From NCBI GenBank assembly GCA_965208575.1, contig CBDBOV010000002.1, positions 64,001 to 128,000 of the forward strand: DNA of 64,000 nt. The letters run 5' to 3'. A program made the position numbers and the translations under genes. Below, in pieces: positions 14,018 to 63,925 of this stretch. Under the pieces are notes generated by a model. The model was not told the origin of the DNA, did no database searches, and was given only the letters and a program-made list of their open reading frames with translations. This DNA is from Spirochaetia bacterium (lineage in GTDB: Bacteria > Spirochaetota > Spirochaetia > SZUA-6 > Bin103). Within the stretch, counting starts at the first letter, position 1, and each line of letters begins with the position of its first letter.

Positions 14018-14081
14018 GCGTGAGTGGTCACCGGCGCCCAAGCCCGCGCATCGGTGTCAGGGTTCGGGCGCCGCCTGGAGC

Positions 14082-15653
14082 TCACTCCATGATGGTGCCG
14101 TCCTGGATGAACTGCTTGGCGGCCGCGGTCATGCGCTCGCCGCCGTTGGCCATCCAGGAATCCACGTAGGCGTCCCACTCGGCGTCGATGTCGATCGCGC
14201 CGGAGATCGCCTTGACGTAGAACTGCACCTCGATGTCGCTCAGGTCGCCGCGCAGCTTGTTGACGTCGGCCGAGAACTCCACCCACGGCCCCTCGTCGAC
14301 CAGCCTGGCAGCCACGCCCGCCTCCACCACGGTCGCCACCTCGCCGGCGATGTTGGTGCGCCACAGCTCGATGGGCCGGTAGTTGTGCATGGCGAACTTG
14401 TACATGCCGGCCTTGGCGTACGCCTCGTTGTTGTGGAACTCTCCGATGCGGCGGATCTCGGTGGGCGACACCCGCTCGGCGTACTTCACCTCCGGGTCGA
14501 AGATGCCCATCGGGCCGACGCGGCTGCGCCAGTGGCGGTCGGGGTCGGTCTCGATCCACTCCAGGATCTGCATGATCTTGACCACCTTCTCGTCGCTGGC
14601 GTCCTTGCCGAACAGGCCGACCGCGGTGGCGGCGCCGTAGGCGGAGGTGTGCGCTCCCGCCGGGCCCTCCGGCTGCGGCAGGTAGATCATCGACACGTCC
14701 GGCATGGTCTTGCGGATCTCGTTGATCGGCGAGCCGGCGCGCTCGCGCAGCCAGGTCCAGTTGCGCTCCACCACGCCGAGCTTGTGGTTGGCCCACTTGG
14801 CGGTCCAGGTGGCGCGGTCCACGGTGAAGCTCTCCGGGTCGATCAGGTCGTCCGCCCACCAGGCCGCGAGCACCTTCAGCGCCTCGCGGTAGCCGGCGCT
14901 GATCATCGACCAGTCGCCGTTGTGGTCCCAGGTGGCGATGCGCACGCCGTGCGCGCCGAACACGTTCGGGAAGCTCGCCGAGGCCACGCTGAGCGAGCTC
15001 AGGCCCTGCTGCGCCCAGCGTGCGTAGCCGTACTGGTCCTTGTTGCCGTTGCCGTCCGGGTCCTCGTTGCGCAGGCTGCGGATCAACTCCTCGAAGTCGG
15101 CCAGGGTCCAGGCGTCGGGCCGCTCGAAGCCGACCGCCGCCGCCCAGTCGTCGCGGATGCCGAGGATGTGCCCGGTGGCGTTGCCGGCCGACACGTTCGG
15201 AATGGCGTACTGCACGCCGTCCACCTGCGTCGACGGCCACGCCTTGCCGGTGTCGTTGGTGTCGACGTAGCGCACGTAGATCGGCATGTGGGTTTCCAGC
15301 CACTCACGCGAGATCGAGCGGATCACGCCGTCCTCGGCGAGCTGCCGCAGGCTGGTGCCGGCCATGCCGCGCCCGATGTCGTAGGCGAAGTCGGGAACCT
15401 CGCCGGCCGCGATGCGCAGCGAGATCTGGTCCCGGTCGCTCCAGTCGATCGGCACCGGCTTCAGGTCGACGTCCGGGAACTGCGCCTCGATCGCCTGCTC
15501 GATGATAGACCCCTCCAGCACCGGGTTGCCGGTCGGATTGACCCCGTGCCAACTGATGACAAGCTGATCCGGCGCGGCCGCCTCGGCTTCGCCGGCCGCA
15601 TGCCCCGACACGGCCGCCGCGACCGCCACGATCACCCCGATCCAAATCCGCAT
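14082..15653 (-). CDS. Carbohydrate ABC transporter extracellular solute-binding protein
   Basis: Signal-like N-terminus after RBS GAAGGAGAGG; AAGEVPD, DGVQYAIP, IRDDW, DPDGNG.KD motifs; upstream of two permeases. Confidence 0.88.
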   Translation of the reverse strand: MRIWIGVIVAVAAAVSGHAAGEAEAAAPDQLVISWHGVNPTGNPVLEGSIIEQAIEAQFPDVDLKPVPIDWSDRDQISLRIAAGEVPDFAYDIGRGMAGTSLRQLAEDGVIRSISREWLETHMPIYVRYVDTNDTGKAWPSTQVDGVQYAIPNVSAGNATGHILGIRDDWAAAVGFERPDAWTLADFEELIRSLRNEDPDGNGNKDQYGYARWAQQGLSSLSVASASFPNVFGAHGVRIATWDHNGDWSMISAGYREALKVLAAWWADDLIDPESFTVDRATWTAKWANHKLGVVERNWTWLRERAGSPINEIRKTMPDVSMIYLPQPEGPAGAHTSAYGAATAVGLFGKDASDEKVVKIMQILEWIETDPDRHWRSRVGPMGIFDPEVKYAERVSPTEIRRIGEFHNNEAYAKAGMYKFAMHNYRPIELWRTNIAGEVATVVEAGVAARLVDEGPWVEFSADVNKLRGDLSDIEVQFYVKAISGAIDIDAEWDAYVDSWMANGGERMTAAAKQFIQDGTIME

Positions 15654-15707
15654 GGTCCTCTCCTTCGCACCTCGCAGCCTTGATTCCGCCGCTCGTGCGT
15701 AACCAGA

Positions 15708-15737
15708 GATACTGCGCCCCGCCCCGCCCGCTGTCAA
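15708..15737 (-). promoter_or_regulatory. Possible sigma70 promoter of the ABC operon
   Basis: Perfect TTGACA on the minus strand (15732-15737), followed by a weak -10 region (CAGTATCT). Confidence 0.45.
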
Positions 15738-15833
15738 GCTCGCGCCGCTCTTGCTCGGCTGCGCTCGCGGCGAGCCATGTGCTGATCTACGCGCCCGGGA
15801 TACCGCTTGGGGCCGGCAGACCGTCCTGCTCGG

Positions 15834-16265
15834 TCAGTTGAACAACCGATTCAGCCACGCTACCAGCCGAACCGCATCGGGAGCGCTGACATTCAGATCC
15901 CCGGCTCCGATCGCCGCTCCCATCATCCTCGGTTCCGCTCTCGTGGCCAGCCACGAGTGAACCTTGGCGCGAAGCACCTTGCCGCTGGCGAACTTGCGGT
16001 CAGGAACGGGTATCTCGTCGATGTATGTCTCGGATCGCGGCCATACGGGGTCATCGTTGGGGATCATGTCCGCGAAGAACTCCTCCACTTGGCCAGCGGA
16101 CACGTTATCGGGCATCAGCCAGATCCCGATTTGCGGCCGGTTGTCGATGATGGTCCCGGATGGATCGGGCACACGCGGTGCGGTGACATCCACTCGCGAC
16201 AGCGCGTGGGTCACGGCATTCCAACGACTCTGTACGTCGTCGTCTGCATCCAGCAGGATGCCCAA
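15834..16265 (-). pseudogene. DUF3226-like (TOPRIM-like) partner protein, apparently N-terminally truncated
   Basis: Begins abruptly at LGILLDADD; has GIWLMPDN..GQVEEF and KVHSWLA; no upstream VEG motif and only 20 nt to the ATPase stop. Confidence 0.65.
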
Positions 16266-16285
16266 CGCTGGGGCCGGGCACGGCG

Positions 16286-17369
16286 TCAGCGAACCTCGAT
16301 ACCCTGGTCGGCAGCGATCTTCAGATCCTCTTCCGAGTAATCGACTGCTCGCAGCCCTCTGTCATCCCGGTCCAGACGTACCAACACTCCGTCCCCGTCC
16401 TCGAATTCGGCTGCCGCGTGGGCAAACCCTCGCACGCAGTCCCAGCTATGCGTCGTCGCCAGAACCTGCACGTCGTTCGCAAGTGCCGTCTGCAGCACAA
16501 GTTTCCAGATTTCGTACTGCGCGGTGTGGTGGATGCCGTTCTCGGCCTCATCGATCAGCAGCAATCCGCCGCGGCAGTTGGCAAGTGCCAGGGCAATTCC
16601 ATATAGCCTTACCGTACCGTCGCCGAGGCTCTTCAACGGCACCGGTCGATCATATCCCGTGAGGCGGACGACGGTCCTTCGTCGACGTCCGTTCGGCCTG
16701 CCATCTCCGATCAGCGCTACACCAGTTACCGTGTTCCCGGCTATCAGTTGAAGGGCCGATACTGCTCGTTGTTCATTGTCCGTCAACGCGACCTCGTCCC
16801 AAAAACGAGCAAGATCGCTGTCTCCAAGGACATCCGGACCCAGAAGCTCGCAGGTCAATCGTGGTTCCGGCTCATCATTCTCGGGTAGACGTTGCGACCG
16901 ACTGAAGTCGTTAAGCCCACCACTCGGGATGAACCAACGGACCTGTCTCTTGCCGCGGAACGAGACCGAAAGACCCGGTACCGGGTCCGCAAGATTGAGG
17001 AGAGTCGAACGAAACTTGGCAAGGGAGGTCATCTCGATCTCGAGTTGATCTGACGGGTTCCTCGGGCCGATGACAATCGGTGTTCCCTCACTGACTCGCC
17101 GATGGAACAACGACAGGGCATCGAGTTCACTCGCACCATCGCCGTTGTCGTCCGAGCCAACATGTACCTCATCGCGACTGCTCAGCAGGTCCGAGAGCGC
17201 CGAAAAGCGGCCTCGAGCAGCGAACACGGACCGCTTCCAAGACGGTGGTCTTGCCGACGCCGTTCTTTCCGGCAAGCAAGGTCACGCGGCCGAGGCGGGG
17301 AATAGTCAGTTGGTCGATCCCTCGGAATCCCTGGATGGTCAGGTCAGGAAGGTGGAGAGGCTTGCTCAT
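16286..17369 (-). pseudogene. AAA_21/ABC-type ATPase, frameshifted near 17225
   Basis: Walker A GKNGVGKT in one frame; signature SLGDG, Walker B LLLIDEAENGIH and ATTHS in another; junction EAVR|VFAARG; span 1084 nt. Confidence 0.85.
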
Positions 17370-17383
17370 GGCGTGCTGCACCG

Positions 17384-17893
17384 TCAAGCGACATTGTACC
17401 ACTTCGTACCGCGAGTGTCGGGAGTTTCGTTTCCGTCATCCTGCCCGGTGGTGGGCGGATCGCGTCCGGGGAAGGGTGTAGGGCGGGGTCGAACAGGTTG
17501 CCGAGTTGTAGCCGGCGGCTTGGCCGAGGACAGCGGCGCGCAACAAGGTTCGTCGTTCAGGACGCGACTTGCACGAGCCGATGTGCTCCGAGGGGCGTCT
17601 CGCGTATCGCGTATCGCGTCGGCAATTTCATGCACCGCGGCGCGCAAGGGACGGAGGCGGTTGTCATCGCCGGCAATCACGGCAATCGGAGGTCTTGGAT
17701 GCTCCGTCGCCAAGCGCTTGTCGGCGGTGACCAGAGCGGTGAGACCGTGTTGATGAGCTTGTTCCAGCAGTTCGCTGTTTCGCAACGTGCGCCAGCGGTG
17801 GAAAATCGCGCTCTCCACTGAGCCTCCGCCGAGGGCCTCTTGCAGCGGTATACGCAGCCGTGGTGAGATGCCGACGTCAAGGAGGACCTTCAT
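17384..17893 (-). CDS. DUF5615/PIN-like toxin (VapC45-like)
   Basis: MKVLLDVGIS, NSELL, LVTADK; ATGA overlap with the DUF433 gene; low-complexity tail may be read-through. Confidence 0.72.
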   Translation of the reverse strand: MKVLLDVGISPRLRIPLQEALGGGSVESAIFHRWRTLRNSELLEQAHQHGLTALVTADKRLATEHPRPPIAVIAGDDNRLRPLRAAVHEIADAIRDTRDAPRSTSARASRVLNDEPCCAPLSSAKPPATTRQPVRPRPTPFPGRDPPTTGQDDGNETPDTRGTKWYNVA

Positions 17894-18147
17894 GCATTGG
17901 CGCGTTGCCCGTTGCCCTCCTCCGTGCTTCGGTCAGCGAGTGCGGCACCGGCCGCTCGCAACACCGCCTCGGCAGCCTGACGGTCGATTTTGAAATCCTC
18001 AATGAACTCGTCGAGCGACACGCCGTCGGCGAGCCAGTCGAAGAGCTGCTGAACCGGGAGCCGGCTGCCACGGAAGCACGGCACCCCGCTCATCCGGTCC
18101 GGATCGACCCAGACCGCCTGGTCAAGGGGCATCACGTCATGCGTCAT
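17890..18147 (-). CDS. DUF433 antitoxin (VapB45-like)
   Basis: VDPDRMSGVPCFRGSRLPVQQLFDWLADGVSLDEFIEDF; RBS GGAGG 8 nt upstream. Confidence 0.88.
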   Translation of the reverse strand: MTHDVMPLDQAVWVDPDRMSGVPCFRGSRLPVQQLFDWLADGVSLDEFIEDFKIDRQAAEAVLRAAGAALADRSTEEGNGQRANA

Positions 18148-18230
18148 GATGGTCACCTCCCACGATCATGCAGCAAAACCCCATTTGTAGCACTTCACGT
18201 CGGACTTGGTGGGAACTGCGGCCAGCCATG

Positions 18231-19154
18231 TCATCGCGACGACGTGCTGACGCGGAGGGTGTCGTGGGGGAGGGTGCAGACCATGGTGTAGGCGGGGTCG
18301 AACATGTTGCCGAGCTGGTAGCCGGCGGCCTGGCCGAGGACGATGTGGGCCAGGTGGCGGTCCAGGCCGTAGTCTTCGGCCAGCCAGCGCAGCATCTCGG
18401 TGGTGGCGTGCTGCACGCACTGGTCGAGCGGGCGGGCGTTGCCGAGGGTGGCGATGCATTCCGGCGTCCGGGCGCGCGGCCAGCCGATGGCGCGGCCCTT
18501 GTGCAGCTCGACGCGGAACACCACGTCGGCGGAGATCTCGATGCCGGTGCCGACGATTTCGCCGTCGCCCTGCACGGCGTGCACGTCGCCGAGCGCGAAC
18601 AGGGCGCCGGGTTCGAACACCGGGAACAGGGCGGTGACGCCGGCCTGGAAGCCGTTCCAGTCCATGTTGCCGCCGTGGCGCTCGGAGGTAGCGGTGGAGA
18701 TCGCCTGGTGGCGTTCCGGCGCGACGCCGAAGCAGCCGATCATCGGCGCCAGCGGCACGCGCCAGTGCGCCAGTTCCGGCACGCCCCGCGGCGAGGCCAC
18801 GCCGGCGTCGACGTCCACGGTCCAGTCGATGCTCGGCGGCAGGCCAGCGGGCAGGGTGGGGTGGCCGGGATCGAGCACGTTGGCCGCCACCCAGGTCTTG
18901 GTGTAGCCGCGGGTGCGGTTGGGACGGATCTGCTCCAGGTGCACGGACAGGGTGTCGCCGGGCTCGGCGCCGGCCACCCGGAACGGGCCGGTCTGCGGGT
19001 TGCCGGCGGGCGTGACGGCGTCGTCGTTGGCATCGAAGCCGCCGGCGTCCACGGTGGTGGTGAACACCCGGTCGCCGGATGCGATGGTGAGCACCGGATC
19101 GTGCGGGCCGAGGGTGGTGTGATAGGCGGTGGGGACGAATCGATGATCTGCCAC
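18231..19154 (-). CDS. Acetamidase/formamidase family protein
   Basis: NPQTGPF.VAGAEPGDTL, PMIGCFGVAP, HGGNMD, GDVHAVQGDGEI; RBS AGGAG before GTG. Confidence 0.92.
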   Translation of the reverse strand: MADHRFVPTAYHTTLGPHDPVLTIASGDRVFTTTVDAGGFDANDDAVTPAGNPQTGPFRVAGAEPGDTLSVHLEQIRPNRTRGYTKTWVAANVLDPGHPTLPAGLPPSIDWTVDVDAGVASPRGVPELAHWRVPLAPMIGCFGVAPERHQAISTATSERHGGNMDWNGFQAGVTALFPVFEPGALFALGDVHAVQGDGEIVGTGIEISADVVFRVELHKGRAIGWPRARTPECIATLGNARPLDQCVQHATTEMLRWLAEDYGLDRHLAHIVLGQAAGYQLGNMFDPAYTMVCTLPHDTLRVSTSSR

Positions 19155-26959: not shown

Positions 26960-27146
26960 GCGCGTTACTGTAGCACGCCCGAGGCGGCCATGAAGACTCC
27001 GCGCCGGTGCTCGACCGCATCACCGTGCCGTCCGCCACGCGGGCCCGCGCACCGCTTCCTGCATTCCGTTCGCCAGTTATGAAATAGACACCTTTCTAAC
27101 GGTAATCGATACGTCCATCATACTTTTGTTGAGTACCTTCGTGGCA

Positions 27147-30100
27147 ATGACGACGACGAGATACAGCACGACAGTTGTACGGAGGACATCCGCCGCGCTC
27201 GCCTTGCTGCTGATAATCTTGACAGCGGCGGAGACCGCACAGGCGCAGACCTCGGTCAAGCTGGTCGGCAACACCGGGCAAGCACACAATGGCAATCGCG
27301 ACTTTCGAACCGATTTCGACTACGCCGGCGGGTTCACCACCGGCCGCAATAGTGACGGCTACAAGCTGACCAGCGTGGGCCTCGGCGTTTCAATGCTCAA
27401 CCCATCAGGAACGACAGAGCCTCAGTATACGGTGAGCATCTGGTCGTCGAACTCGAGTGGCCATCCGGGCAGCAATCTGGGCACGCTCACGAACCCGGCC
27501 AAACTGGCTCAGGGAACCAACTCGTTCACCGCCGCCGGCACGGGCATCGATCTGGACGCCCAGACAACCTACTGGGTGGTGGTGGACCCAACCGCCGTGG
27601 GGGACAGACAAACTCGACTCCGTATGACACAAACGAACGCGGAGGATGCGGGTGCGGCGACGGGCTGGAGCATTGCGAACAGTGACCTTTCGAAACACAC
27701 GAGCGACAGTTGGACTGGAGATGAATTTGGGCAGTCCACTCAGTTCGCCGTCCACGGCCACGCGAAGGACGAAGCCGCGCCGACGCTGCTCGGCGGCACG
27801 ATTCGCGGGCAAACCGTGAAGCTGTACTTCAGCGAGCTCCTGAAGACGACGGGGACCCCGGCTGCGAGCCAGTTCACGGTCACCGGCAATCCCACCGACC
27901 TGGGGGCGGTCACCAGCGCCACGATCGACACGTCCGAGAGCAACATCATTACCCTGATGGTGACTAATGCCTCGGCCGCGGCCGATACGGTCACGGTCAC
28001 CATCCCCACCACCACCGGCATCGAGGACCTCGCCGGCAATTCCCTCGCGGCAATCACGACGGCGTTCACGCTGACCAACATCAACCCCGACGATCCCGGC
28101 GCCCCGCTCCTTACCGCCGCGTCGGTCAACGCGAGAACGCTGACGCTGACCTACAACCAGAAGCTGCTGCCGAGATATCCGCCCGCCGCGGACTTCACCG
28201 TCTCGGCGAGCACGACGAGCGTGAGCGTGGACGAGGTCGCCCTCACCCCCGGCTCGACGAGTTCGACCGTGGCGCTGGCTCTGAGCCTGCCGGTGAAGCA
28301 CGGCGAGACGGTGACGGTAAGCTACAGCAAGGCCACGAAGCCGCGGCTCCAGAACGAGTGGGGCAGTCAGGTGACCGCGCTCTCGATCCGTGCGGTGACC
28401 AACGCCACCGACCCGCCCGTGGCCTGGATCGTGTCCGCCCATAGTGATGGGCCAGTAGAAGAAGGCAAGCCTGCGGGATTCTCAGTGGAAATGGACCCGG
28501 TGCCGGCGTCGGAGGTCCAGGTCAACGTGACGATTTCGCAGACGGGCACCTTCGTGGCAAGCGAGCACCTGGGTGCGAGGACCGTGACCATGCCGACCAC
28601 CCAGTCTCACATCTTCAATGTGCCCACGGTACACAACGGGGCGGATCAGGCGGACGGGTCGGTGACGGCGACGCTTGCCGCGGGTACCGGCTACACCGTG
28701 CACGCGACGAAGAACGCCGCCACCACGCGGGTGCGCGACATCGACGAGAGCCCGCCCGCGCCTCCGGCGCCACCGTCACCGTCACCGTCACCGTCGCGCG
28801 GCAGCGCGCCGGCGGCTTCGGCGGGCGCGGACGTGGAGGTCGACCCGGGGGCTTCGGTGACGCTGAACGCCTCGCGGAGTTCGGACCCGGACGGGGACGC
28901 GCTGACCTACGCGTGGGAGCAGGTCTCGGGCGCGGCGGTGACGCTTTCCGGTGCGAACACGGCGCGAGCTGCGTTCACGGCTCCGGCCGCGCCGGGCGCG
29001 CTGGAGTTCCGCCTCACGGTGACGGACCCGGGCGGGTTGTCGGACAGCGACGTGGTGACGGTGACGGTGCGCGACCTGGCGCCGAGCTTCGGCGATGCGG
29101 CGGTCGCCGCGCTGGTGCTGGTGTCGGGCGAGGCGATGGCGCCGGTGGTGCTGCCGGAGGCGGCGGGGGGCAACGGGGCGCTCTCCTACAGCTTGACCTC
29201 CGAGCCGACGGGGCTTGCGGGGCTCAACTTCGACGCGGCGGCGCGGCGGCTGTCGGGCAGGCCGGGGACGGAGGGGAGCTGGGTCTTTACCTGGCGGGCG
29301 CACGACGCGGACGCAAACCGGGCGGACGCGGACGCGGCGACCCTGACCTTCCGGGTTACGGTGGATGACTCGGGCGCTGCGATGGTAAAGCACACGGTGC
29401 GGCGCACGCTGTCGGCGGTGGCGGGGCGGGCGCTGTCGAGCGCGCTCGACAACATCGGGGCGCGCATCGAGACCTCGGTGCCGGCGAGCGGTCTGACGCT
29501 GGCCGGGGAGACGTTGCCGCTCGGCCTGCCCGCGGCGCGCCTCGCGGGTGCGTGTGCGCCGGACGCGCGCGGCCGCCACGGGTTCGGGACCACGTTCGGG
29601 CAGGCCGGCTTCGGCGCGGCGCGCGACGGCTGCGCGCCGGACGCGCGGGGCCGGAGCGTCGCGGCGGCGGAGCTGCTGCACGCGAGCGCGTTCTCGCTGA
29701 CGCCGGGCGCGGCGCAGGCGGCGCCGTCGGCGCTACTGTGGTCGGTGTGGGCCCGCGGCGACCTTGGCACGTTCGCGGGCCGCCCGGAGCCGGGGATACG
29801 CTACGAGGGCGAGCTGCGCACGGGCTGGCTCGGGATGGACGTGCGCGCGGGCGCGTGGGTGGCGGGGCTTGCGGTGAGCCACGGCACGGGCGAGGCGGAC
29901 TACCGCTTCGAAGAGCGGGGCATGTCCGGGCGCGGCCGGCTGCAGACGTCGCTGACCGCGCTCTACCCCTATGGAAGCTGGACCGTGGTGGACGGCCTGG
30001 AGCTGCGCGGCGTGCTCGGCGCCGGGCTCGGCGAGGCCGTGCATCGCCTGGACGGCGACGAGCGCGAGACGAGCGACCTCTCGATGCAGATGGCGTCGCT

Positions 30101-30833
30101 GGGCCTGCGCCACGAGTTGCCCGCACTGGCGCGGATCGACCTCGCGGCGCGGGCCGACGCGAGCCTCGTGCGGATGGCGACCGACGACGGCCCGGACTAC
30201 GTCGACGGCGTGACCGCCACTACTTGGCGCTTGCGAGCCGGGCTCGAGGCCTCGCGGCGCTTTGCGCTGGGCGGCGACACCGCGCTCGCACCGTTCGTCG
30301 AGGCGGCCGGGCGGCACGACGGCGGCGACAGCATCACCGGCAGCGGCCTCGAAATGGCGGGCGGGCTGCGCTTCATGACGCCGCGTCTGCAGGTGGAGGC
30401 GCGCGGGCGCTGGCTCGCGTTGCACTCGGAGGAAGGCGCGGAGGAGCGCGGCGTGAGCGCGACCGTGCGCATGGCGCCCGGGGCGCACGGGCGCGGGCTG
30501 TCGCTGTCTGTGACCCCGCGCTGGGGCGCGGGAACCGGCGGCGCGGAGGCGCTGTGGCGGGACCAACTGCCGCAATCGCCCGGAACCCCGGAAGGCGATG
30601 CCGCCGCGCTCGACGCGCAGATCGGCTACGGTCTGGGTCTCACTCCGCACGGGCTGCTGACGCCGTTCGCCGAGACCGGGCTCGCCGGCGCGGACAGCCG
30701 GCGGCTCAGGCTCGGCGCCCGGTTCGACGCCTCGCACCTGGATCTCGGCGTCGAGGTCGCGGGCGAGCGCGTCGAGAGCGGCGCGGCCGAGCCCAAGCAC
30801 GCGCTCAGGTTCGACCTCAGGCTGCGGTTCTGA
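27147..30833 (+). CDS. Autotransporter-like surface adhesin (SwmB-like, Calx-beta-like, PKD and Ig-like modules, C-terminal beta-barrel)
   Basis: Signal peptide ending AQA-QT; Thr/Ser-rich beta modules (LTLTYNQ.L, DGSVTATLAAGTGY, SSDPDGDALTYAWEQ, GGNGALSYSL); C-terminal amphipathic strands ending LRF. Confidence 0.82.
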   Translation: MTTTRYSTTVVRRTSAALALLLIILTAAETAQAQTSVKLVGNTGQAHNGNRDFRTDFDYAGGFTTGRNSDGYKLTSVGLGVSMLNPSGTTEPQYTVSIWSSNSSGHPGSNLGTLTNPAKLAQGTNSFTAAGTGIDLDAQTTYWVVVDPTAVGDRQTRLRMTQTNAEDAGAATGWSIANSDLSKHTSDSWTGDEFGQSTQFAVHGHAKDEAAPTLLGGTIRGQTVKLYFSELLKTTGTPAASQFTVTGNPTDLGAVTSATIDTSESNIITLMVTNASAAADTVTVTIPTTTGIEDLAGNSLAAITTAFTLTNINPDDPGAPLLTAASVNARTLTLTYNQKLLPRYPPAADFTVSASTTSVSVDEVALTPGSTSSTVALALSLPVKHGETVTVSYSKATKPRLQNEWGSQVTALSIRAVTNATDPPVAWIVSAHSDGPVEEGKPAGFSVEMDPVPASEVQVNVTISQTGTFVASEHLGARTVTMPTTQSHIFNVPTVHNGADQADGSVTATLAAGTGYTVHATKNAATTRVRDIDESPPAPPAPPSPSPSPSRGSAPAASAGADVEVDPGASVTLNASRSSDPDGDALTYAWEQVSGAAVTLSGANTARAAFTAPAAPGALEFRLTVTDPGGLSDSDVVTVTVRDLAPSFGDAAVAALVLVSGEAMAPVVLPEAAGGNGALSYSLTSEPTGLAGLNFDAAARRLSGRPGTEGSWVFTWRAHDADANRADADAATLTFRVTVDDSGAAMVKHTVRRTLSAVAGRALSSALDNIGARIETSVPASGLTLAGETLPLGLPAARLAGACAPDARGRHGFGTTFGQAGFGAARDGCAPDARGRSVAAAELLHASAFSLTPGAAQAAPSALLWSVWARGDLGTFAGRPEPGIRYEGELRTGWLGMDVRAGAWVAGLAVSHGTGEADYRFEERGMSGRGRLQTSLTALYPYGSWTVVDGLELRGVLGAGLGEAVHRLDGDERETSDLSMQMASLGLRHELPALARIDLAARADASLVRMATDDGPDYVDGVTATTWRLRAGLEASRRFALGGDTALAPFVEAAGRHDGGDSITGSGLEMAGGLRFMTPRLQVEARGRWLALHSEEGAEERGVSATVRMAPGAHGRGLSLSVTPRWGAGTGGAEALWRDQLPQSPGTPEGDAAALDAQIGYGLGLTPHGLLTPFAETGLAGADSRRLRLGARFDASHLDLGVEVAGERVESGAAEPKHALRFDLRLRF
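28755..28796 (+). repeat. Pro/Ser linker with CCGTCA tandem hexamers
   Basis: ccgtcaccgtcaccgtcaccgtcg encoding PSPSPSPS. Confidence 0.8.
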
Positions 30834-46561: not shown

Positions 46562-46747
46562 AGAGCGGTGGATCAGCGTCACCGGGGCGCCGGCGCGCTG
46601 CAGGTCGAGGGCGGTCTCCACGGCCGGGTTGCCGCCTCCCACGACCGCCACCCGCCGGCCATAATGGGGGTGCCCGTCATGGAAGTTGTGCGAACGCCTG
46701 GGCAGATCCTCGCCCGGACTGCCGAGCCGCACCGGCGTGTCGAAGCA
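46562..46747 (-). pseudogene. Fragment of a YpdA/thioredoxin-reductase-like flavoprotein
   Basis: FDTPVRLGSPGEDLP..SHNFHDGHPHYGRRVAVVGGGNPAVETALDL.RAGAPVTLIHR matches the NADPH-binding segment; both ends missing. Confidence 0.65.
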
Positions 46748-46849: not shown

Positions 46850-47704
46850 ATGCGGCCCACCGGCGCGGTGGCGCTCGGCGACGCCGCGGTCGCACGGTTC
46901 CGGCGCCGCGTGTGCTGGCACGGACGGCGCCACTACCGCGTTCTGCCGTGGCGCGAGACGAGCGACCCGTACGCCATCCTGGTGTCGGAGGTGATGCTGC
47001 AGCAGACCCAGGTGACGCGCGCGCTCGACCACTACGCGCGCTTCCTGGCGCGCTTCCCGGACCCGGCCGCCCTGGCCGCGGCGCCGCTGTCCGCGGTGCT
47101 GGAACGCTGGCGAGGCCTCGGCTACAACCGCCGGGCGCTGGCGCTGCAGCACGCCGCCGGCGCCGTGGTGCGCGAACACGGCGGCCTGTTGCCGGCCGAC
47201 CGCGACGCGCTGCTGCGCCTGCCGGGGGTGGGCCCGGCCACCGCCGGCGCCGTGCTCGCGTTCGCCTTCGCGCAGCCGGCGGTGTTCATCGAAACCAACA
47301 TCCGGCGCCTGTTCCTGCACCAGTTCTTCCCCGCCGCCGACAACGTACCGGACGCCGCCCTGCTGCCGCTGGTGGCGCGCACCCTCGACCGCCGGCGCCC
47401 GCGGCGCTGGTACTACGCGCTGATGGACTGGGGGGCGGCGCTCGGGCGGCGCCCCGGCAACCCGAACCGGCGCAGCGCCCATTACAGCCGCCAGAAACCG
47501 TTCGCCGGGTCGCGGCGCGAGCTGCGCGGACGCGTGCTGCGCCTGCTCACCGAACGCCGCTGCCTGCCGCTCGCCGAACTGCAGGAACGCTGCGCCGACC
47601 AACGGCTCGCCGCGGTGGTGGCAGACCTGGCCGCCGAGCAGTTCCTGACCCGCTCCGGCAACGTGGTCTGCATCGCCGGCCACCGCGTGCCGCCGCCCAC
47701 CTGA
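46850..47704 (+). CDS. mutY: Short MutY-like A/G-specific adenine glycosylase
   Basis: LPWR, VSEVMLQQTQV, W.GLGY.RR, LPGVGPATA, ETNIRR, ALMDWGA. Confidence 0.85.
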   Translation: MRPTGAVALGDAAVARFRRRVCWHGRRHYRVLPWRETSDPYAILVSEVMLQQTQVTRALDHYARFLARFPDPAALAAAPLSAVLERWRGLGYNRRALALQHAAGAVVREHGGLLPADRDALLRLPGVGPATAGAVLAFAFAQPAVFIETNIRRLFLHQFFPAADNVPDAALLPLVARTLDRRRPRRWYYALMDWGAALGRRPGNPNRRSAHYSRQKPFAGSRRELRGRVLRLLTERRCLPLAELQERCADQRLAAVVADLAAEQFLTRSGNVVCIAGHRVPPPT

Positions 47705-47847
47705 CAATCTATTTCTCTACCATGAGTTACGCCGCATTCACTCAGATCGGTGGCGGGCGCCGGCGGGGTCAGGAAGGTGCGCCGCCGCGGGGCGCGCCGG
47801 CAGCGGGGCGCGATCCTTTTTCTGCGTCATCAATGGAACGAATCGGG

Positions 47848-47904
47848 TTGACTGCCGATAATACAAGTGATACGGTTGATACCCTGTCGCATCAGGTGCT
47901 GATG
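47848..47904 (+). promoter_or_regulatory. Sigma70 promoter with overlapping TGAT repeats and a palindrome (candidate operator)
   Basis: TTGACT(47848)-17 bp-TACGGT(47871); TGATAC at 47868 and 47877; CATCAG-gtg-CTGATG at 47890-47904. Confidence 0.55.
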
Positions 47905-47934
47905 TTCCCGGCAACCGTGGCAGGAAGGAGCAAG

Positions 47935-48201
47935 ATGCGCGCCTACGGGGCCATAAACCTCAGGCAGGTGCCAATACGGCTGCGCGACCAGTTTCATGCA
48001 GTCTGCGCGCTGCGCGGCACCTCAATGACTCGACGGCTCATTCAGCTCATCGAGGCTGACGTGGAGCGCGCCATCGACGAGGGTACCTACCTGCCGGTGC
48101 CCGTGCGCGGCCCGGACGCGGCAACCGCGCAGTCGGGCGCGGACGCCGCCGCCGTGCAGCGGGAGCTCTTTCCGGAGCACGCGACGCCGGAACAGCAGTA
48201 A
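47935..48201 (+). CDS. Small putative ribbon-helix-helix DNA-binding protein
   Basis: RBS AGGAAGGAG; strand INLRQV, helix PIRLRDQFHAVCALRG, helix TSMTRRLIQLIEADV; hidden at the end of track ORF 46912..48201. Confidence 0.65.
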   Translation: MRAYGAINLRQVPIRLRDQFHAVCALRGTSMTRRLIQLIEADVERAIDEGTYLPVPVRGPDAATAQSGADAAAVQRELFPEHATPEQQ

Positions 48202-48229
48202 GGGGACCCTGCAAGTAAGGGACCATGCA
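48197..48229 (+). repeat. Imperfect tandem direct repeat upstream of nrdA
   Basis: AGTAAGGGGACCCTGCA followed by AGTAAGGGACCATGCA. Confidence 0.7.
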
Positions 48230-48259: not shown

Positions 48260-51208
<2,949 letters not shown>

Positions 51209-51211
51209 GCC

Positions 51212-52225
51212 ATGCCGATCATCGGCGCTTCCGCCACCGACCCGAACAAGATCCTCCCGCTCACCTACCCGTGGGCGCGCGAGTTCTACAAGAACGGCGT
51301 GGCCAACAACTGGGTGCCGGAAGAAGTGTCGATGCAGAAGGACGTGGAGCAGTGGAAGGCGCCGGACGTGCTGAGCGGCACCGAGCGGCGCCTGATCCTG
51401 TGGAACCTCGGCTTCTTCTCCACCGCCGAGTCGCTGACCGCCAACAACATCGTGCTCGCGGTGTACCGCCACGTCACCAACCCGGAATGCCGCCAGTACC
51501 TGCTGCGGCAGGCGTTCGAGGAGGCGATTCACACCGACACCTTCATCTACTGCAGCGATTCGCTCGGCCTCGATCCCGACCACATCTACACGATGTACCA
51601 CACCATCCCGAGCATCCGCGAGAAGGACCAGTTCGTGATCGAGATCACGAAGTCGATCTTCGATCCGTCGTTCGACCTGGTCTCGCCCGCCGCCGCCGAT
51701 CGCACCGCCAACGTGCAGCGCTTCCTGCGTGACCTGATCGGCTACTACGTGATCATGGAGGGCGTCTTCTTCTACGCCGGGTTCGCCATGATGCTCGCGC
51801 TCAAACGGCAGGGCAAGATGGTCGGCATCGGGGAGCAGTTCGAATTCATCATGCGCGACGAGAGCGTACACCTGGCGTTTGGCTGCGAGCTGATCAACAC
51901 CATCAAGCAGGAGTATCCGGCCGCCTGGTCCGCCGAGCTGCAGGCGGAGGTCGTGGGCCTGGTGCGGCGCGGCGTGGAATTCGAGCAGGCGTACGCCCAC
52001 GACGCCTGCCCCGATGGTCTGCTCGGCATCAACGCCGTGCAGTTCGCCCGCTACGTCGAGTACGTCGCCGACCGCAGGCTCGAGCGTATTGGCCTGCAGC
52101 GCCAGTACGAGACCGAGAACCCGTTCCCGTGGATGGGGCACACCATGGACCTGAACAAGGAAAAGAACTTCTTCGAAACCCGGGTGACCGAGTACCAGCC
52201 CGCCGGCGCCCTCGACTGGGACTAG
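51212..52225 (+). CDS. nrdB: Ribonucleotide reductase beta subunit, class Ic (R2c) signature
   Basis: FFSTAESL, EEAIHTDTF, MEGVFFY, RDESVH, NFFETRVTEY. Confidence 0.95.
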   Translation: MPIIGASATDPNKILPLTYPWAREFYKNGVANNWVPEEVSMQKDVEQWKAPDVLSGTERRLILWNLGFFSTAESLTANNIVLAVYRHVTNPECRQYLLRQAFEEAIHTDTFIYCSDSLGLDPDHIYTMYHTIPSIREKDQFVIEITKSIFDPSFDLVSPAAADRTANVQRFLRDLIGYYVIMEGVFFYAGFAMMLALKRQGKMVGIGEQFEFIMRDESVHLAFGCELINTIKQEYPAAWSAELQAEVVGLVRRGVEFEQAYAHDACPDGLLGINAVQFARYVEYVADRRLERIGLQRQYETENPFPWMGHTMDLNKEKNFFETRVTEYQPAGALDWD

Positions 52226-58494: not shown

Positions 58495-59700
58495 TCATCC
58501 GCCGCGCAACAGGCTGGTCAGAAACGACAGGCCCACGAAGGTACCGATCGCGCTGCCGACGCTCGACATGAAGAACACCGCCAGTATGTGGGTGACCCGG
58601 TTGCGCAGAATGCCGCGCACGCTGCCCACGTCCTGTGACAGGTTCTCGAAGTCGACCACCCTCGGCTTGCGCACCATCGCCTGGATCAGCCCGGCCACGA
58701 TACCCACGCCGATGGTGGGGTTCACGGAAGTGATCGGCGCCGCCGCAAACGAGGAAATGATGGTGAGGGGGTGCGCCAGCGCCGCGAGCGCGCCCAGCGC
58801 GGCGAGCGTGCCGTTCACCAGCACCCATTGGGCCAGCTTCTCGATGGTCACCTCGGCGCCGGCACGCAGGAAACCGTACCCCACCAGCGCCACGAACAGC
58901 GCCGGGATGGTCCACGGCAGCAGCCGCGGCAGGCGGCCGGGAGGCGGCACGTGATCCAACTCGTCCAGTTCCTCGATGCGCGGCGGGCGGCGCCGATACA
59001 CGGACAGCCAGCGCTCGATGCCCGGCACGTGGCCGGCGCCGACGACCGCCAACACGCGCTCGCCGCCGGCCTCGAAGATGCGCTGCGCCAGGTACCGGTC
59101 GCGCTCGTCGATCAGCACCTCCTTGACCTGGGGCAGGTAGTCTGCGAGTTCGTCGAGCATGCCCTGCAGCGCGCCGCGCTCCTTGAGCGCCTCGACCTGC
59201 TCGCCGTCCAGCTTCTCGTTCGAGAATCCCGCCGCCAGCAGCGCCGCGAGCAGCTTGAGGCGGCCCCACCAGCCGGTCTTGCGCCACGCACGCCGCAGCG
59301 TCACCTGGATCTCCCGGTCGCACAGCACGAAGGGGATCCCGTCCGCCTCCGCCTCCGCCACCGCCGCGGCCATCTCCGCGCCGGGCTGCACGCCGAGGTC
59401 CATGCCCAGGCGCCGCTGAAACGAGTGCAGCACGATGTTGGTGAGCATCAGGAAACCCTTGCGCTGCTTGAGCACACGCCGGATGTCCAGTTCCATCCAG
59501 CGCCGTTCGCTGCTCATGGTCGCATAGCGACTGGCATCGAGTTCCACGCACACGCAGTCCGGCTGCTCGCGGGCGACGGCGTCGCGCACTTCGGCAACGC
59601 TGCGCTGCGAGATGTGCGCGGTGCCGATCAGGACAACCGAGCGCTCACCAAGTGGTACCGTGACGGGCGCCGAAGCGGGCGAATCAGGTGAATCAGGCAT
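58495..59700 (-). CDS. TraB/GumN family protein with C-terminal TM helices
   Basis: IGTAHIS, CVELD, PGAEM, CDREIQVT, DERD, VGAGHVPG. Confidence 0.92.
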   Translation of the reverse strand: MPDSPDSPASAPVTVPLGERSVVLIGTAHISQRSVAEVRDAVAREQPDCVCVELDASRYATMSSERRWMELDIRRVLKQRKGFLMLTNIVLHSFQRRLGMDLGVQPGAEMAAAVAEAEADGIPFVLCDREIQVTLRRAWRKTGWWGRLKLLAALLAAGFSNEKLDGEQVEALKERGALQGMLDELADYLPQVKEVLIDERDRYLAQRIFEAGGERVLAVVGAGHVPGIERWLSVYRRRPPRIEELDELDHVPPPGRLPRLLPWTIPALFVALVGYGFLRAGAEVTIEKLAQWVLVNGTLAALGALAALAHPLTIISSFAAAPITSVNPTIGVGIVAGLIQAMVRKPRVVDFENLSQDVGSVRGILRNRVTHILAVFFMSSVGSAIGTFVGLSFLTSLLRGG

Positions 59701-59779
59701 TTGTGTTCCGCGCTCAGATTATCGTGTACCGTGACTTGCCGCTACGGTCTCCGGATGATACTATCGACTACTTGGGTGA

Positions 59780-60070
59780 CGGTCTGTGAATAACTTGTGG
59801 ACATCCAACAGCTTCCCAGGACACAAGCAATTGCAGCGTTCCACAGACCTGCTCAGGAATCGCAAGTAACTCGGCATGAAATCATCTTGCTTGGCACAAA
59901 TTATTTCTATACAAGAACTTACAAGTTATTCTGATGCCCTTTCAGGTTCCGTAATGTCACAAAATGTGACACGGCAGGGCTCGCGACTCCTTTCAACTGC
60001 TTGTGAATAACTTGTGCACGAAATGGTTCGATAACCGCTTATCAGCGGTTTTTCCGGGTGCAATTGGCTC
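59780..60070. other. Probable oriC, upstream part / dnaA promoter with DnaA boxes
   Basis: AT-rich; TGTGAATAA at 59785 and 60002, each followed by CTTGTG; TGTGGACAT 59796; TGTGCACGA 60013. Confidence 0.8.
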
Positions 60071-60091
60071 CACGTGGACAGGAGGCGAATA

Positions 60092-61462
60092 GTGGCTGAT
60101 CATTGGGACTACGAGGCGTTCTGGAACGAGGCGCGCGAGCGGATCAGGGACACCATCACCAGACAGGAATTCGATACCTGGTTCGCCAACATGACCTACC
60201 ATGGTTCGCAGCAAGGAGTCATCGAACTCGGCGTGCCTTCCACGTTCTACCGCGACCAGGTAGCCCAGCGATTCCAGCCCGCTATCGAGCGGGCGCTGTT
60301 TGAGCTGTCGGCACTCCACCTCAAGCTTGCCTACGTGATTCGCGGCGTGAGTCAGTCACAGCCGGCCGCCCCGGCCGCCGCCCCGGCCGCCCCGGTGGCG
60401 TCGCTGCTGGTCGAGGCGCCGCGCCGGCACCGTCAGCTCAACCCCGACTACACGTTCGATCGACTGGTGGAAGGCGAAAGCAACACCTTCGCCCTCAACG
60501 CGGCCGTGGCCATCGCCAAGAACCCGGGCCGCGCCTACAACCCATGCCTGGTATACGGCGGTGTCGGTCTCGGCAAGACCCATCTCCTGCAGGCGATCGG
60601 CAACTGGGCACACGCTTCTCTGCCCGACCTCAAGGTGGTCTACGTCACCGTGGAGACCTTCACCAACGAGTTCATCCAGTCGATCAAGGAGAAGACCGGG
60701 CACCGCTTCAAGAACCGCTACCGATCCGCGGACGTGCTGCTGATCGACGACATCCAGTTCCTGCAGGGCAAGGTGGAGACCCAGCAGGAACTGTTCCACA
60801 CCTTCAACGCCCTGTACGACGCCAACAAGCAGATGGTGTTCAGCAGCGACCGCCCGGTGTCGGAACTGATGAACCTGCCGGACCGCCTGATCAACCGATT
60901 CGAGCGCGGCCTCAACGTCGACCTGCAGCCGCCTACCTACGAGACCCGCATCGCCATCGTCGCCCGCAAGATCGAAGAGCGCGGATTGTCCCTCGAGCAC
61001 GGCATCGTCGAACTGATCTGCCGCAACATCCGCTCCAACGTCCGCGACCTGGAGAAGGCGCTCACCAAGCTCGCGGCCTACACCGAGCTGATGCAGCGCA
61101 CCATCACGCCGCCGATCGCGCAGCGCGAACTGCAGGAGTTCTTCGCCAAGCCCGAGCACCTGAGCATCACCATCGACGGTATCCAGCGCGCCGTGGCGGA
61201 CTACTTCTCGCTCACGCCGGCCGACCTGAAGGGCAAGAAGCGCACCAAGGCGATCGCCTTTCCGCGCCAGGTGGCGATGTACGTATCGCGGTCGCTTACC
61301 AACTTCTCCACCACCGAGGTCGGCCTCGAGTTCGGCGGCCGCGACCACACCACCGTCATGCACGCGTGCCAGCGCATCACCGACCGGCTCAAGACCGACG
61401 CCACCCTCGAGCCCACCCTGCAGCGGATCATCAACACCTTGCGCCAGAAGAGCGTGGCCTGA
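60092..61462 (+). CDS. dnaA: Chromosomal replication initiator DnaA
   Basis: YTFD, YNP..VYGGVGLGKTHL, LLIDDIQF, RF..GL, FGGRDHTTVMHA; RBS AGGAGG. Confidence 0.98.
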   Translation: MADHWDYEAFWNEARERIRDTITRQEFDTWFANMTYHGSQQGVIELGVPSTFYRDQVAQRFQPAIERALFELSALHLKLAYVIRGVSQSQPAAPAAAPAAPVASLLVEAPRRHRQLNPDYTFDRLVEGESNTFALNAAVAIAKNPGRAYNPCLVYGGVGLGKTHLLQAIGNWAHASLPDLKVVYVTVETFTNEFIQSIKEKTGHRFKNRYRSADVLLIDDIQFLQGKVETQQELFHTFNALYDANKQMVFSSDRPVSELMNLPDRLINRFERGLNVDLQPPTYETRIAIVARKIEERGLSLEHGIVELICRNIRSNVRDLEKALTKLAAYTELMQRTITPPIAQRELQEFFAKPEHLSITIDGIQRAVADYFSLTPADLKGKKRTKAIAFPRQVAMYVSRSLTNFSTTEVGLEFGGRDHTTVMHACQRITDRLKTDATLEPTLQRIINTLRQKSVA

Positions 61463-61499
61463 CCTCCCGGCGCGGCCCCGGCGCGGGTACAGGCACGGG

Positions 61500-61690
61500 A
61501 CAACCTGTGCACGAACTCTGCATCGCGCGTGGGCAAACCGGGCCGGCCGCACTCGACCTGGGTATAATGTGGATAGCCCCGCGCCATCACCAACCACCCC
61601 GGTGGACGGTTAAAATGAAACACTACAAAAGGTTACACTGTTTTTGCACATATCCTCGGCAACTACTACCATAACCCCCAATCAACTAGG
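61500..61690. other. Probable oriC, downstream part (DnaA boxes plus DnaA-trio-like run)
   Basis: TGTGCACGA 61506, TGTGGATAG 61568, TTTTGCACA 61642 followed by a GC patch and AACTACTACCATAAC. Confidence 0.7.
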
Positions 61691-61707
61691 AAGAAGGGAA
61701 TGACACG

Positions 61708-62814
61708 ATGAAGTTCACCTGCGAGCGCGAGTCCATCCTGCACGAGATCGCCAACGCCTACGAAATCATCTCGGTACGCAACTCGTTGTCGATTCTGTCC
61801 AACGTGCTGCTCGACGTCACGGGGCGAAAACTGACCATTCGCGCCACCGATCTGAAGGTCAACTACGAGTCGACGATACCGGTGGAGGTCAAGCAGCCGG
61901 GCAGCGTGACGGTGTTCTGCGACAAACTGCACAGTATTCTCCGTTCGCTGCCCGACGGCGAGGTGGAGCTCGAATTGTCGGACGACACCGTGCTGCGCAT
62001 CAGTCCGGTGTTCAAGAACATCCGCTTCCAGCTCAAGGGCATAGCGGCCGACAAGTACCCGCCGTTCCAGGGCGATGCCGAGGAGCAGGCGTTCACGTTC
62101 GGGAAGCAGGATCTGATCGAGATGATTTCCCACACCCTGTTCGCGGTGTCCGACGACGAGACCAGGTACTTCATGAACGGTGTGTTCCTGGAGAAGCAGG
62201 GCGACCAGATCATCATGGTGGCGACCGATGGGCGGCGGTTGGCCTACGCGTCGAAGGAGGTGGATGCCGCGGTTGCCGACTTCAAGGGGGTGATCATTCC
62301 TCCCAAGGTGCTGAGCGTGGTACGCCGGCAGGCGCCGCGCGAGGGCGAGCTGCGCATGACGGTGAGCGAGCGCGGCTTCCACGTGTCGTTCGATACCCAG
62401 CACCTGTCGTCCAACCTGATCGAGGCGCAGTTTCCCAACTACCAGCGGGTAATCCCCGAGCGCCAGGAGCAGCGCCTGCTGATCGAGCGCAGCGCGTTCG
62501 AGGAAGCACTGCGCCGGGTGTCGCTGCTGGTGGAGCAGAAGTCGCGCCGCATCTACCTGGAGAGCCGGCCCGACAACCTGGTGATCCGGTCGAGCGAAGG
62601 GGAGATCGGCGCCGCGCGCGAGGAGGTTCCGTGCCAATACGACGGACCGGAGATCGTGCTGGCGTTCAACTTCGAGTATCTGCTCGAGCCGCTGCGCGAG
62701 ATGTCCGGCGACCAGGTGGCACTGGAGTTCACCGACAGCGGCAAGGCGCTGTCGCTGCGCCCGGAACCGGAAGGCGACTTCTTCCACATTGTCATGCCGA
62801 TGCAAAGCAGTTGA
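61708..62814 (+). CDS. dnaN: DNA polymerase III beta clamp
   Basis: ILSNVL, ATDL, DETRYFMNG, VATDGRRL, FPNY.RVIP, VMPM. Confidence 0.98.
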   Translation: MKFTCERESILHEIANAYEIISVRNSLSILSNVLLDVTGRKLTIRATDLKVNYESTIPVEVKQPGSVTVFCDKLHSILRSLPDGEVELELSDDTVLRISPVFKNIRFQLKGIAADKYPPFQGDAEEQAFTFGKQDLIEMISHTLFAVSDDETRYFMNGVFLEKQGDQIIMVATDGRRLAYASKEVDAAVADFKGVIIPPKVLSVVRRQAPREGELRMTVSERGFHVSFDTQHLSSNLIEAQFPNYQRVIPERQEQRLLIERSAFEEALRRVSLLVEQKSRRIYLESRPDNLVIRSSEGEIGAAREEVPCQYDGPEIVLAFNFEYLLEPLREMSGDQVALEFTDSGKALSLRPEPEGDFFHIVMPMQSS

Positions 62815-62827
62815 AGCAGCGCTCGCG

Positions 62828-63925
62828 TTGGCTCTGCTGGCGGTGCGGCTCACCGATTTTCGCAACATCGCATCGCTGCGCATCGACATCGACGGCCGCG
62901 ACGTGTTCCTGATTGGTGACAACGGGCAGGGCAAGACCAATTTCCTGGAAGCGGTCTATCTGCTGTGCTACGGCGCCTCGTTCCGCACCCGCAACGACCG
63001 CGACCTGATAGCCAATGGCAGCCGCGAGGCAGCCGTGTGGGGCCGGCTGGCCGCCGGCGACGAGCAGCGCGGCGTCGGCATCGGCCTGGAGCGAAGCGCC
63101 GGCAAGCGGATCGCGGTAGACGGCAAGCGCATTCGCGACCGTGCGGCACTGATCGAGTTCGCCCCGGCGATTGCCTTTACCCACGAGGACCTGCGCTTCA
63201 TCGACGGAGATCCGGAGCGGCGCCGGAGTCTGTTCGATCACACGCTGTCGCTGTTCAACCCGTCGTTCATCGACGTGCTGCGGCGCTACCGGCGCGCGCT
63301 GCGGGCGCGCAATGCGCTGCTGCGCACCGGCGACGGCCGGCACGTCGACGTATACGAGCCGGTGCTCGCGACGGCGGGTTGGGAAATCCGCACCCGGCGC
63401 GGCGAACTGTGCGCCGAGTTTGCCTCCGTGTTCGCGGATCTGTGCGATCGAATCGGCGGCATGCGGGACGCCAACATCGAGTATCGTCCGTCCTGGCGGC
63501 GGGCGGCGTGCGCCGACGACGCCGAGTCCGAGTTGCGCGCGCGCCTGGAGCGCGACCTTGCCGCCGGTACCACGACCAGCGGTCCGCACCGTGACGACTT
63601 CCTGATTACGCTCGGAGAGGCGCGCTTCGCGGCGCAGGGATCGACCGGCCAGAAGCGGCTGGCGTCGCTGGTGCTGCGCGTTGCCCAGGCGGAGTTCTTC
63701 GAGCGCACCACCGGGAGGCGGCCGATCCTGCTGCTCGACGACGTGCTGCTGGAGCTGGACGCCGGCAAGCGGGAGCGGTTTCTGCGTCACCTGCCGGCGT
63801 ACGAGCAGGCGTTCTTTACCTTTCTTCCCGACGAACCGTACCAGCGCTACGGGCGCGCCGGAACCATCAGGGTTGCCGTGTCCGGGGGAGCGTTCACACC
63901 ATGTACCGAGCCGGCGACCTGCTGA
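62828..63925 (+). CDS. recF: DNA replication/repair protein RecF
   Basis: FRN, GDNGQGKTN.LEA, SFR, GPHRDD, STGQ, LLLDDV..ELD; start approximate. Confidence 0.96.
   Translation: MALLAVRLTDFRNIASLRIDIDGRDVFLIGDNGQGKTNFLEAVYLLCYGASFRTRNDRDLIANGSREAAVWGRLAAGDEQRGVGIGLERSAGKRIAVDGKRIRDRAALIEFAPAIAFTHEDLRFIDGDPERRRSLFDHTLSLFNPSFIDVLRRYRRALRARNALLRTGDGRHVDVYEPVLATAGWEIRTRRGELCAEFASVFADLCDRIGGMRDANIEYRPSWRRAACADDAESELRARLERDLAAGTTTSGPHRDDFLITLGEARFAAQGSTGQKRLASLVLRVAQAEFFERTTGRRPILLLDDVLLELDAGKRERFLRHLPAYEQAFFTFLPDEPYQRYGRAGTIRVAVSGGAFTPCTEPATC

Follow-up and report, generated by a model that had tools for sequence, protein, structure and literature searches.

What controls ribonucleotide reductase (RNR) synthesis at a spirochaete locus where no paired NrdR box is found and a small gene stands directly ahead of nrdA and nrdB? 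Control of RNR transcription in bacteria is credited mainly to NrdR and, in Escherichia coli, also to DnaA and Hda. NrdR occurs in 77% of bacterial genomes (PMC13584703), and a 2025 review asks how species that lack Hda coordinate dNTP synthesis with initiation (PMC11853086). Nothing on NrdR in spirochaetes appeared in the literature searched, including the available excerpts of PMC9110341, PMC2795772, and PMC4009431. The locus lies within a 64,000-nucleotide stretch of a Spirochaetia genome, which was analysed as a whole and is referred to here as the window. Elsewhere, the window encodes a protein of 1235 aa that bears choice-of-anchor R, PKD, and SWM repeats (27126–30830), a small HicB-like ORF (691–924), and an AAA_21 and DUF3226 pair (15837–17281).

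The small gene (47935–48201, + strand) encodes a protein of 88 aa, P0001. As the earlier note had described, it is preceded by a ribosome binding site, AGGAAGGAG (47922–47930, + strand), and followed by a 58-bp gap before nrdA, which begins at 48260. The GGAG-type site is kept in three related loci, L001–L003. A longer ORF of 429 aa that shares the same frame (46912–48201) had been called a shadow, and this reading holds, because the GC pattern upstream of the 88-aa ORF is non-coding (0.86/0.74/0.55) and the upstream frame is open for only 12–41 codons in the six relatives with upstream DNA. The 88-aa ORF itself is genuine: its GC pattern is that of coding DNA (0.75/0.48/0.82), and among 40 candidates from a protein search there are 35 homologues that share 51–97% identity with it. 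A profile search against 1.84 billion representatives gave 181 matches at E ≤ 0.001 and only seven at 1e-10, and the close family is therefore small.

Across this family, residues 5–54 are strongly conserved, residues 55–74 vary in length and sequence, and residues 75–80 are conserved once more. Cys24 is invariant, and ParG also has a Cys at the aligned position. Degenerate members include P0028 and P0033, which are 68 aa long and lack the tail, and P0038 and P0039, which by appearance are frameshifted or miscalled. When fusions of the protein to NrdA were sought without a length limit, the one strong longer match was P0038, a sequence of 242 aa with unrelated-looking ends. No close match to P0001 was found in phages, and the single plasmid match was weak (E 0.09); an origin of the gene in a mobile element was rejected on these grounds.

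An Arc/CopG-like strand–helix–Gly–helix pattern had been read from the N-terminal half of the protein, and the ribbon-helix-helix (RHH) fold that it implied is borne out by structure prediction, by structure neighbours, and by the Pfam matches of relatives. Fold and family searches place the predicted domain at residues 5–49 (47947–48081, + strand), with the strand GAINLR, helices at residues 14–27 and 31–49, and Gly28. The monomer model has a mean pLDDT of 66 and contains both helices and a low-confidence tail; the strand is uncalled in it, and Gly28, between the helices, is invariant in the family. N8 and R10 are also invariant and presumably resemble N11 and R13 of Arc.

When the model was compared with 48,161 chains in VIA-align, seven matches reached Z ≥ 5 but no match reached Z ≥ 8, values below 8 being middling by the tool's own grading. 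The top rows are RHH proteins such as TacA1 (Z 5.4, rmsd 3.6, 48 aligned) and PutA52 (Z 5.3, rmsd 2.9, 44 aligned). Foldseek ranked ParG and Arc first, with no match significant, MatP is among the matches of both tools, and the structure neighbours of P0001 in the Atlas belong to the FitA, Arc, and CopG families. Among more distant relatives, 19 of 30 match an RHH Pfam family at E ≤ 0.01, the 30 being the best of 147 new identifiers from the profile search. P0001 itself matched no family in Pfam, PHROG, or NCBIfam, and it falls below the curated cut-offs of the named RHH families in Pfam (ParG, RHH_10, Arc, and CopG). The ParG family is matched by three of the 36 members (best E 0.13), P0001 not among them, and RHH_10 by two of the 36 (best E 0.025). 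By sequence, the closest solved match of P0001 is ParG (E 0.48). A match to retinol dehydratase in the PDB sequence search (E 0.007 with the profile) was attributed to chance, as it is absent from the Foldseek and VIA-align lists. These lines of evidence, modest singly, agree with one another, and P0001 is most likely an RHH protein.

The gene heads a conserved gene order. Downstream in the window lie nrdA (48260–51208, + strand), encoding the RNR alpha subunit with two ATP-cone stretches, and nrdB (51212–52225, + strand), encoding a class Ic-type beta subunit. The closest match of NrdB is 1syy (E 7.6e-129), and the class Ic pattern consists of Phe at the position of the radical Tyr and Glu as the first metal ligand (aligned positions F127 and E89). 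A genome scan confirmed seven of 112 candidate stretches as related loci (L001–L007), all from metagenome-assembled genomes of uncultured Spirochaetia, Spirochaetaceae, or Spirochaetales, and the class Ic pattern is present in the window and in all seven. The linkage of homologues to class Ic nrdAB that had been anticipated is found throughout, with the rhh gene directly before nrdA and nrdB in 7/7 related loci. Gaps of 1, 9, 15, 18, 23, 31, and ~100 bp separate rhh from nrdA in these relatives, which fits a single operon, and the gap of 1 bp in L001 is too short to hold a promoter of nrdA's own. In P0003, P0007–P0011, and L001 (10240–10263), the rhh frame continues through the nrdA ribosome binding site, ending in RGGT or similar, which suggests translational coupling.

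Synteny also extends upstream, to genes for RecD2, an aldo-keto reductase, and a MutY-like protein, giving a recD2-akr-mutY-rhh-nrdAB block in one clade. Because the whole flank is syntenic in that clade, the linkage represents one inherited event and not repeated independent linkage. The family is narrow, belonging to one uncultured Spirochaetia clade, and its reach is correspondingly limited. In all six loci that show both sides, the neighbours of rhh are the mutY-like gene and nrdA, and no toxin or ParA gene, as in a type II antitoxin or plasmid partition setting, lies beside it.

Other parts of the flanks vary. On the minus strand of the window (46562–46744), 61 codons remain of a gene for a YpdA-family disulfide reductase; they are 85% identical to an intact ORF of 341 aa in L001. 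Similar full-length YpdA-family ORFs occupy the same place in L002–L005, so the gene appears to have been largely deleted in the window genome. After nrdB, the quinone oxidoreductase gene is replaced by defence-type genes in L004 and L005: an SNF2 helicase in the former (14111–19100) and McrBC-like genes in the latter (14047–17459), with matches below or near cut-offs in both.

The promoter proposed ahead of the gene is present and conserved in relatives. It comprises the −35 hexamer TTGACT (47848–47853, + strand) and, after 17 bp, the −10 hexamer TACGGT (47871), which is part of an extended −10 element, TG-n-TACGGT (47868–47876, + strand). Its score of 8/12 is below the scanner cut-off of 9, and it is accepted because it is conserved and carries the extended −10 TG. 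The window was compared with six loci (L001–L006), since L007 begins within the gene. Conservation peaks over ~35 bp, which hold a −35 of the TTG[AC]C type (TTGAC or TTGCC in the window and L001–L005, GTGAC in L006), a spacer of 17–18 bp, and TG-A-TAnnnT in 7/7 promoters. In L006 (3849–3869), the likely start codon is ~10 nt past the −10 hexamer, so that the mRNA may have almost no leader, a further argument for placing the promoter here. Between the promoter and the mutY-like gene, a hairpin that weakly resembles a terminator (47793–47822, + strand) may insulate the operon; two such hairpins occur in 2.5 kb against 0.7 expected, and this one has no counterpart in the matching region of L001. 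L002, a locus of otherwise 67% GC, has ~45 bp of very AT-rich sequence (~3980–4030) upstream of the promoter.

Two copies of TGATAC had been seen to overlap the promoter, at 47868 and 47877, and both are present. They are joined by a third, degenerate copy, TAATAC at 47859, which had been missed. The three units, with a period of 9 bp, form a candidate operator (47859–47885, + strand) that overlies the spacer, the −10, and the predicted start site, and the array is conserved in the window and in 6/6 relatives with upstream DNA. In an alignment anchored on unit 2, the first unit, which lies in the promoter spacer, matches at five or more of its six bases in all seven promoters; unit 2, which doubles as the extended −10, is invariant (7/7), as it is in an unanchored alignment as well; and unit 3 is TGATAC in four of the seven and lost in three. 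When the region was simulated 2000 times, an AT-rich hexamer was tandemly repeated in 4.1% of the copies; like the ORF, the promoter and the array exceed chance expectation. TGATAC occurs four times on the two strands of the window, two of these in the rhh promoter, and no other tandem TGATAC array was found in the 64 kb.

That the spacer is conserved suggests a site bound by a protein, and the overlap of the array with the polymerase site suggests repression. It is plausible that the RHH protein autoregulates through this array, and it probably regulates the rhh-nrdAB promoter. TGATAC also occurs singly at 59756–59761, where the first DnaA box of the origin region follows ~30 bp later, and in L003 an extra copy, absent in the other loci, sits between rhh and nrdA inside a short inverted repeat (10262–10292).

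Two further elements that the earlier note had included fared less well. The palindrome CATCAG-gtg-CTGATG (47890–47904) exists, and its regulatory role was discarded: it is absent in 6/6 relatives and arises in 31.6% of 2000 simulations, a chance level of 0.32. The direct repeat of 16–17 bp is likewise real, as a 17/16-bp tandem duplication (48197–48229, + strand). It is a local duplication, since it crosses the stop codon and is missing from 7/7 relatives, and it too was dropped as a part of the system. The larger proposal, an RHH-nrdAB operon with its own regulator, retains the support of the fold, the class Ic linkage, the lack of NrdR boxes, and the operon-like gaps, and loses that of the palindrome and the direct repeat.

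NrdR is a nucleotide sensor that combines a Zn-ribbon with an ATP-cone and needs two 16-bp boxes 15–16 bp apart (PMC13584703). With the key positions C4, A6, A8, T9, T11, and G13 and the same spacing as criteria (PMC13584703), no paired box was found in the window or in six loci, as had been noted before. The best pairs agree at no more than 9/12 key positions, and none with all four C4/G13 exceeds 7/12. The best single NrdR-like 16-mer, at 47861, matches at 10/16 positions and was rejected, as it lacks the critical G13 and a partner box. The window ORFs that were scanned gave no NrdR match, nor did a motif search of the window and the loci. No riboswitch was found at the locus, whether for cobalamin, as stated earlier, or of another kind, and no other cis-RNA; the whole window gave one tRNA, and an snRNA match (E 2.1) is due to chance. 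No DnaA box with at most one mismatch lies near the rhh promoter.

The most informative feature of the protein, missed in the earlier note, is in its tail. Beyond a variable, low-confidence linker, residues 75–79 (48157–48171, + strand) read QRELF, a motif of the clamp-binding type. The pattern Q-x-[EQ]-[LF]-[FW] is present in 34 of 36 aligned members, the exceptions being P0028 and P0033. Position 1 is Q in 34 of the 36, Leu is found in 32, and the final residue is F in 17 and W in 17. Position 2 is R (17), G (16), or Q (1), and not the preferred aliphatic residue. The motif lies 2–18 residues from the C-terminus, and pLDDT in P0001 is below 50 at residues 57–75 and 80–88, as in a flexible region. 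By comparison, Q..L[FW] occurs in 1/145 distant RHH relatives and three times in the 17,509 residues of 48 other window ORFs. The codons of the motif vary synonymously, and its distance from nrdA ranges from 24 to 139 nt; selection therefore acts on the peptide, and a role for the motif as a DNA or RNA element was rejected.

The general clamp motif is Q-phi-x-L-F, in which positions 1, 4, and 5 matter most (bioRxiv 10.64898/2026.05.27.728225). For the phage proteins Mor/MuC the consensus is Qx[D/E][L/M]F, and MuC binds the clamp via the motifs QHDLF and QPDLF (PMC12867686). QRELF satisfies this consensus, and the MuC motifs, which are functional, likewise depart from the general motif at position 2. 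Given the non-aliphatic position 2 and the W ending in 17 of 34 members, clamp binding may be weak. Even so, the tail probably binds the beta clamp, judging from the motif and from the modelling that follows.

The proposed partner, the organism's own beta sliding clamp, is encoded by dnaN in the same window (61708–62814, + strand). Together with dnaA and recF, this gene marks the likely replication origin (59700–63922). Perfect DnaA boxes at 59785 and 60002, ahead of dnaA, define the likely upstream part of oriC (59785–60010), and three boxes with one mismatch lie at 61559–61650. The oriC region is ~12 kb from the rhh-nrdAB operon. The nrd operon runs towards the origin, head-on to the leftward fork.

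A complex of DnaN (117-row alignment, from 116 of 120 listed homologues) and residues 59–88 of P0001 was predicted with a score of 0.75, the best of three controls scoring 0.02. A mark of 0.75 is reached by 116/157 solved complexes and 2/215 mismatched pairs, a calibration that holds only roughly for custom alignments. Contact agreement between runs was at least 78%, and partner pLDDT at least 56. In the model, L78 and F79 touch DnaN residues 173–178, 243, 248, and 363, and Q75 touches residues 321, 363, and 365, sites that align with T172–L177, P242, V247, N320, and M362–M364 of E. coli. The pocket of the E. coli clamp includes H175, N320, M362, P363, and M364 (PMC6511837), and the modelled contacts include all of these. 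QRELF is thus predicted to sit in the canonical clamp pocket. Since many clamp–peptide complexes have been solved, the high score may reflect likeness to them, and it is evidence of that likeness rather than of binding. The pocket differs from that of E. coli in that H175 is replaced by Arg in 113/117 aligned clamps and F278 by Ser in 115/117, changes that could shift motif preference in spirochaetes.

That clamp binding and promoter control combine, giving replication-coupled control of nrdAB with one sign or the other, has a probability of about 0.5. In the form favoured here, a dimeric RHH repressor would head the rhh-nrdA-nrdB operon. Its dimers would occupy the 9-bp-period TGATAC array across the spacer, −10, and start site and so block RNA polymerase, limiting synthesis both of the RHH protein itself and of ribonucleotide reductase. 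Each subunit would carry a flexible linker and then a pentapeptide that, as modelled, fits the peptide-binding pocket of the beta clamp. With the start of replication at the nearby origin, clamps would pile up on the DNA, an accumulation suggested by one paper (PMC4284645). The clamp might then draw the repressor off the operator, or strip it at the passage of the fork, and nrdAB would be transcribed when dNTPs are needed. This exact direction, with the clamp relieving repression, is rather doubtful. It is a tentative suggestion that a host chromosomal repressor reads the clamp directly in place of NrdR, such that RNR is switched on by the number of loaded clamps.

An alternative is that P0001 is a plain RHH autorepressor that provides negative feedback on rhh-nrdAB, as the earlier note proposed, with a tail used for oligomerisation, as a protease signal, or for contact with NrdA and bearing a mere look-alike of a clamp motif. 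RHH proteins such as ParG and the antitoxins often have flexible tails for other partners, and the fold, operon, and operator evidence are all compatible with this account. Further support comes from the motif itself, which is off consensus at position 2 and, in half of the family, at position 5. What makes it unlikely is that Q, L, and an aromatic residue recur at the exact spacing of a clamp motif, on a variable tether, in 34/36 members, and that the model docks these three residues in the pocket of the organism's own clamp. It is also quite improbable that the protein binds the clamp for a role away from this promoter, for example on origin-region DNA or in segregation, and is merely co-transcribed with nrdAB, the array being part of the promoter or a target of some other factor. 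ParG- and MatP-like RHH proteins offer a comparison, since ParG is the closest solved match by sequence (E 0.48) and MatP is in the fold lists, and the further TGATAC at 59756 is just ahead of the DnaA boxes. Against this stand the scarcity of TGATAC in the window, half of its occurrences being at this promoter, and the uniqueness of the tandem array; moreover, RHH genes commonly repress their own promoters.

Clamp control could also take the opposite sign or another route. The clamp might deliver the protein to the promoter, for MuC-like activation or for re-repression after the fork, or it might trigger degradation of the protein. Phage MuC (PMC12867686) and T4 gp33/gp55 (PMC9690074) do activate transcription via a clamp, and in fission yeast the RNR inhibitor Spd1, which binds PCNA, is degraded during S phase (PMC10939359; PMC5448002). 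An array that covers the spacer, −10, and start site has the geometry of a repressor site, however, and the rhh promoter has a good −35, whereas MuC promoters have none (PMC12867686). Such routes seem improbable.

Among the closest known systems are the RHH autorepressors (Arc, CopG, ParG, Omega, MetJ, FitA, and the antitoxins), which P0001 resembles in its predicted fold, its place as the small first gene of an operon, and the tandem repeats in its promoter. It differs from them in being chromosomal, in heading nrdAB, in having no toxin or ParA neighbour and no named Pfam family, and in carrying a clamp-type motif. With Mor/MuC and T4 gp33/gp55 it would share a design in which a sequence-specific transcription factor carries, at one end, a motif for binding the clamp, putative in the case of P0001. 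The one clamp-binding transcription factor family found in the literature, Mor/MuC, consists of activators and not repressors (PMC12867686), and T4 gp45 is the other case of a clamp in transcription (PMC9690074). These phage activators have another fold and phage genes as targets, whereas P0001 is a host chromosomal RHH protein with a candidate site that overlaps a promoter with a good −35 and with ribonucleotide reductase as its proposed target. The clamp-dependent transcription factors found in the search are phage proteins, and a host-encoded repressor would differ from them. Among the papers listed, which include few from subscription journals and were judged by titles and the beginnings of abstracts, none concerns an RHH regulator of RNR or an RHH protein with a clamp motif.

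P0001 would occupy the same niche as NrdR, the transcription of RNR genes, but it has none of the NrdR domains, and its locus has no NrdR box pair. By analogy, it most likely works as an RHH autorepressor to which a clamp tether of the MuC type has been added, and it would do so where NrdR usually acts. In E. coli, nrdAB output is likewise tied to the state of the clamp (PMC11853086). The E. coli route is indirect, through DnaA-ATP and Hda, whereas the proposed spirochaete link would be one dedicated protein at a promoter without a DnaA box at up to one mismatch. The 88-residue candidate repressor, the candidate operator, and the organism's own clamp gene all lie within one 64-kb window and, if the proposal is true, they would constitute a new way to couple dNTP supply to DNA replication. 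A further parallel is the Spd1–PCNA system of fission yeast, in which a small negative regulator of RNR binds the clamp through short motifs (PMC10939359). Spd1 is eukaryotic and disordered, inhibits the enzyme, and is degraded via ubiquitin, so that the likeness to P0001 is one of analogy and not homology. If the proposal is true, P0001 would by itself act as a replication sensor that sets dNTP supply, and its logic would be convergent with that of Spd1–PCNA.
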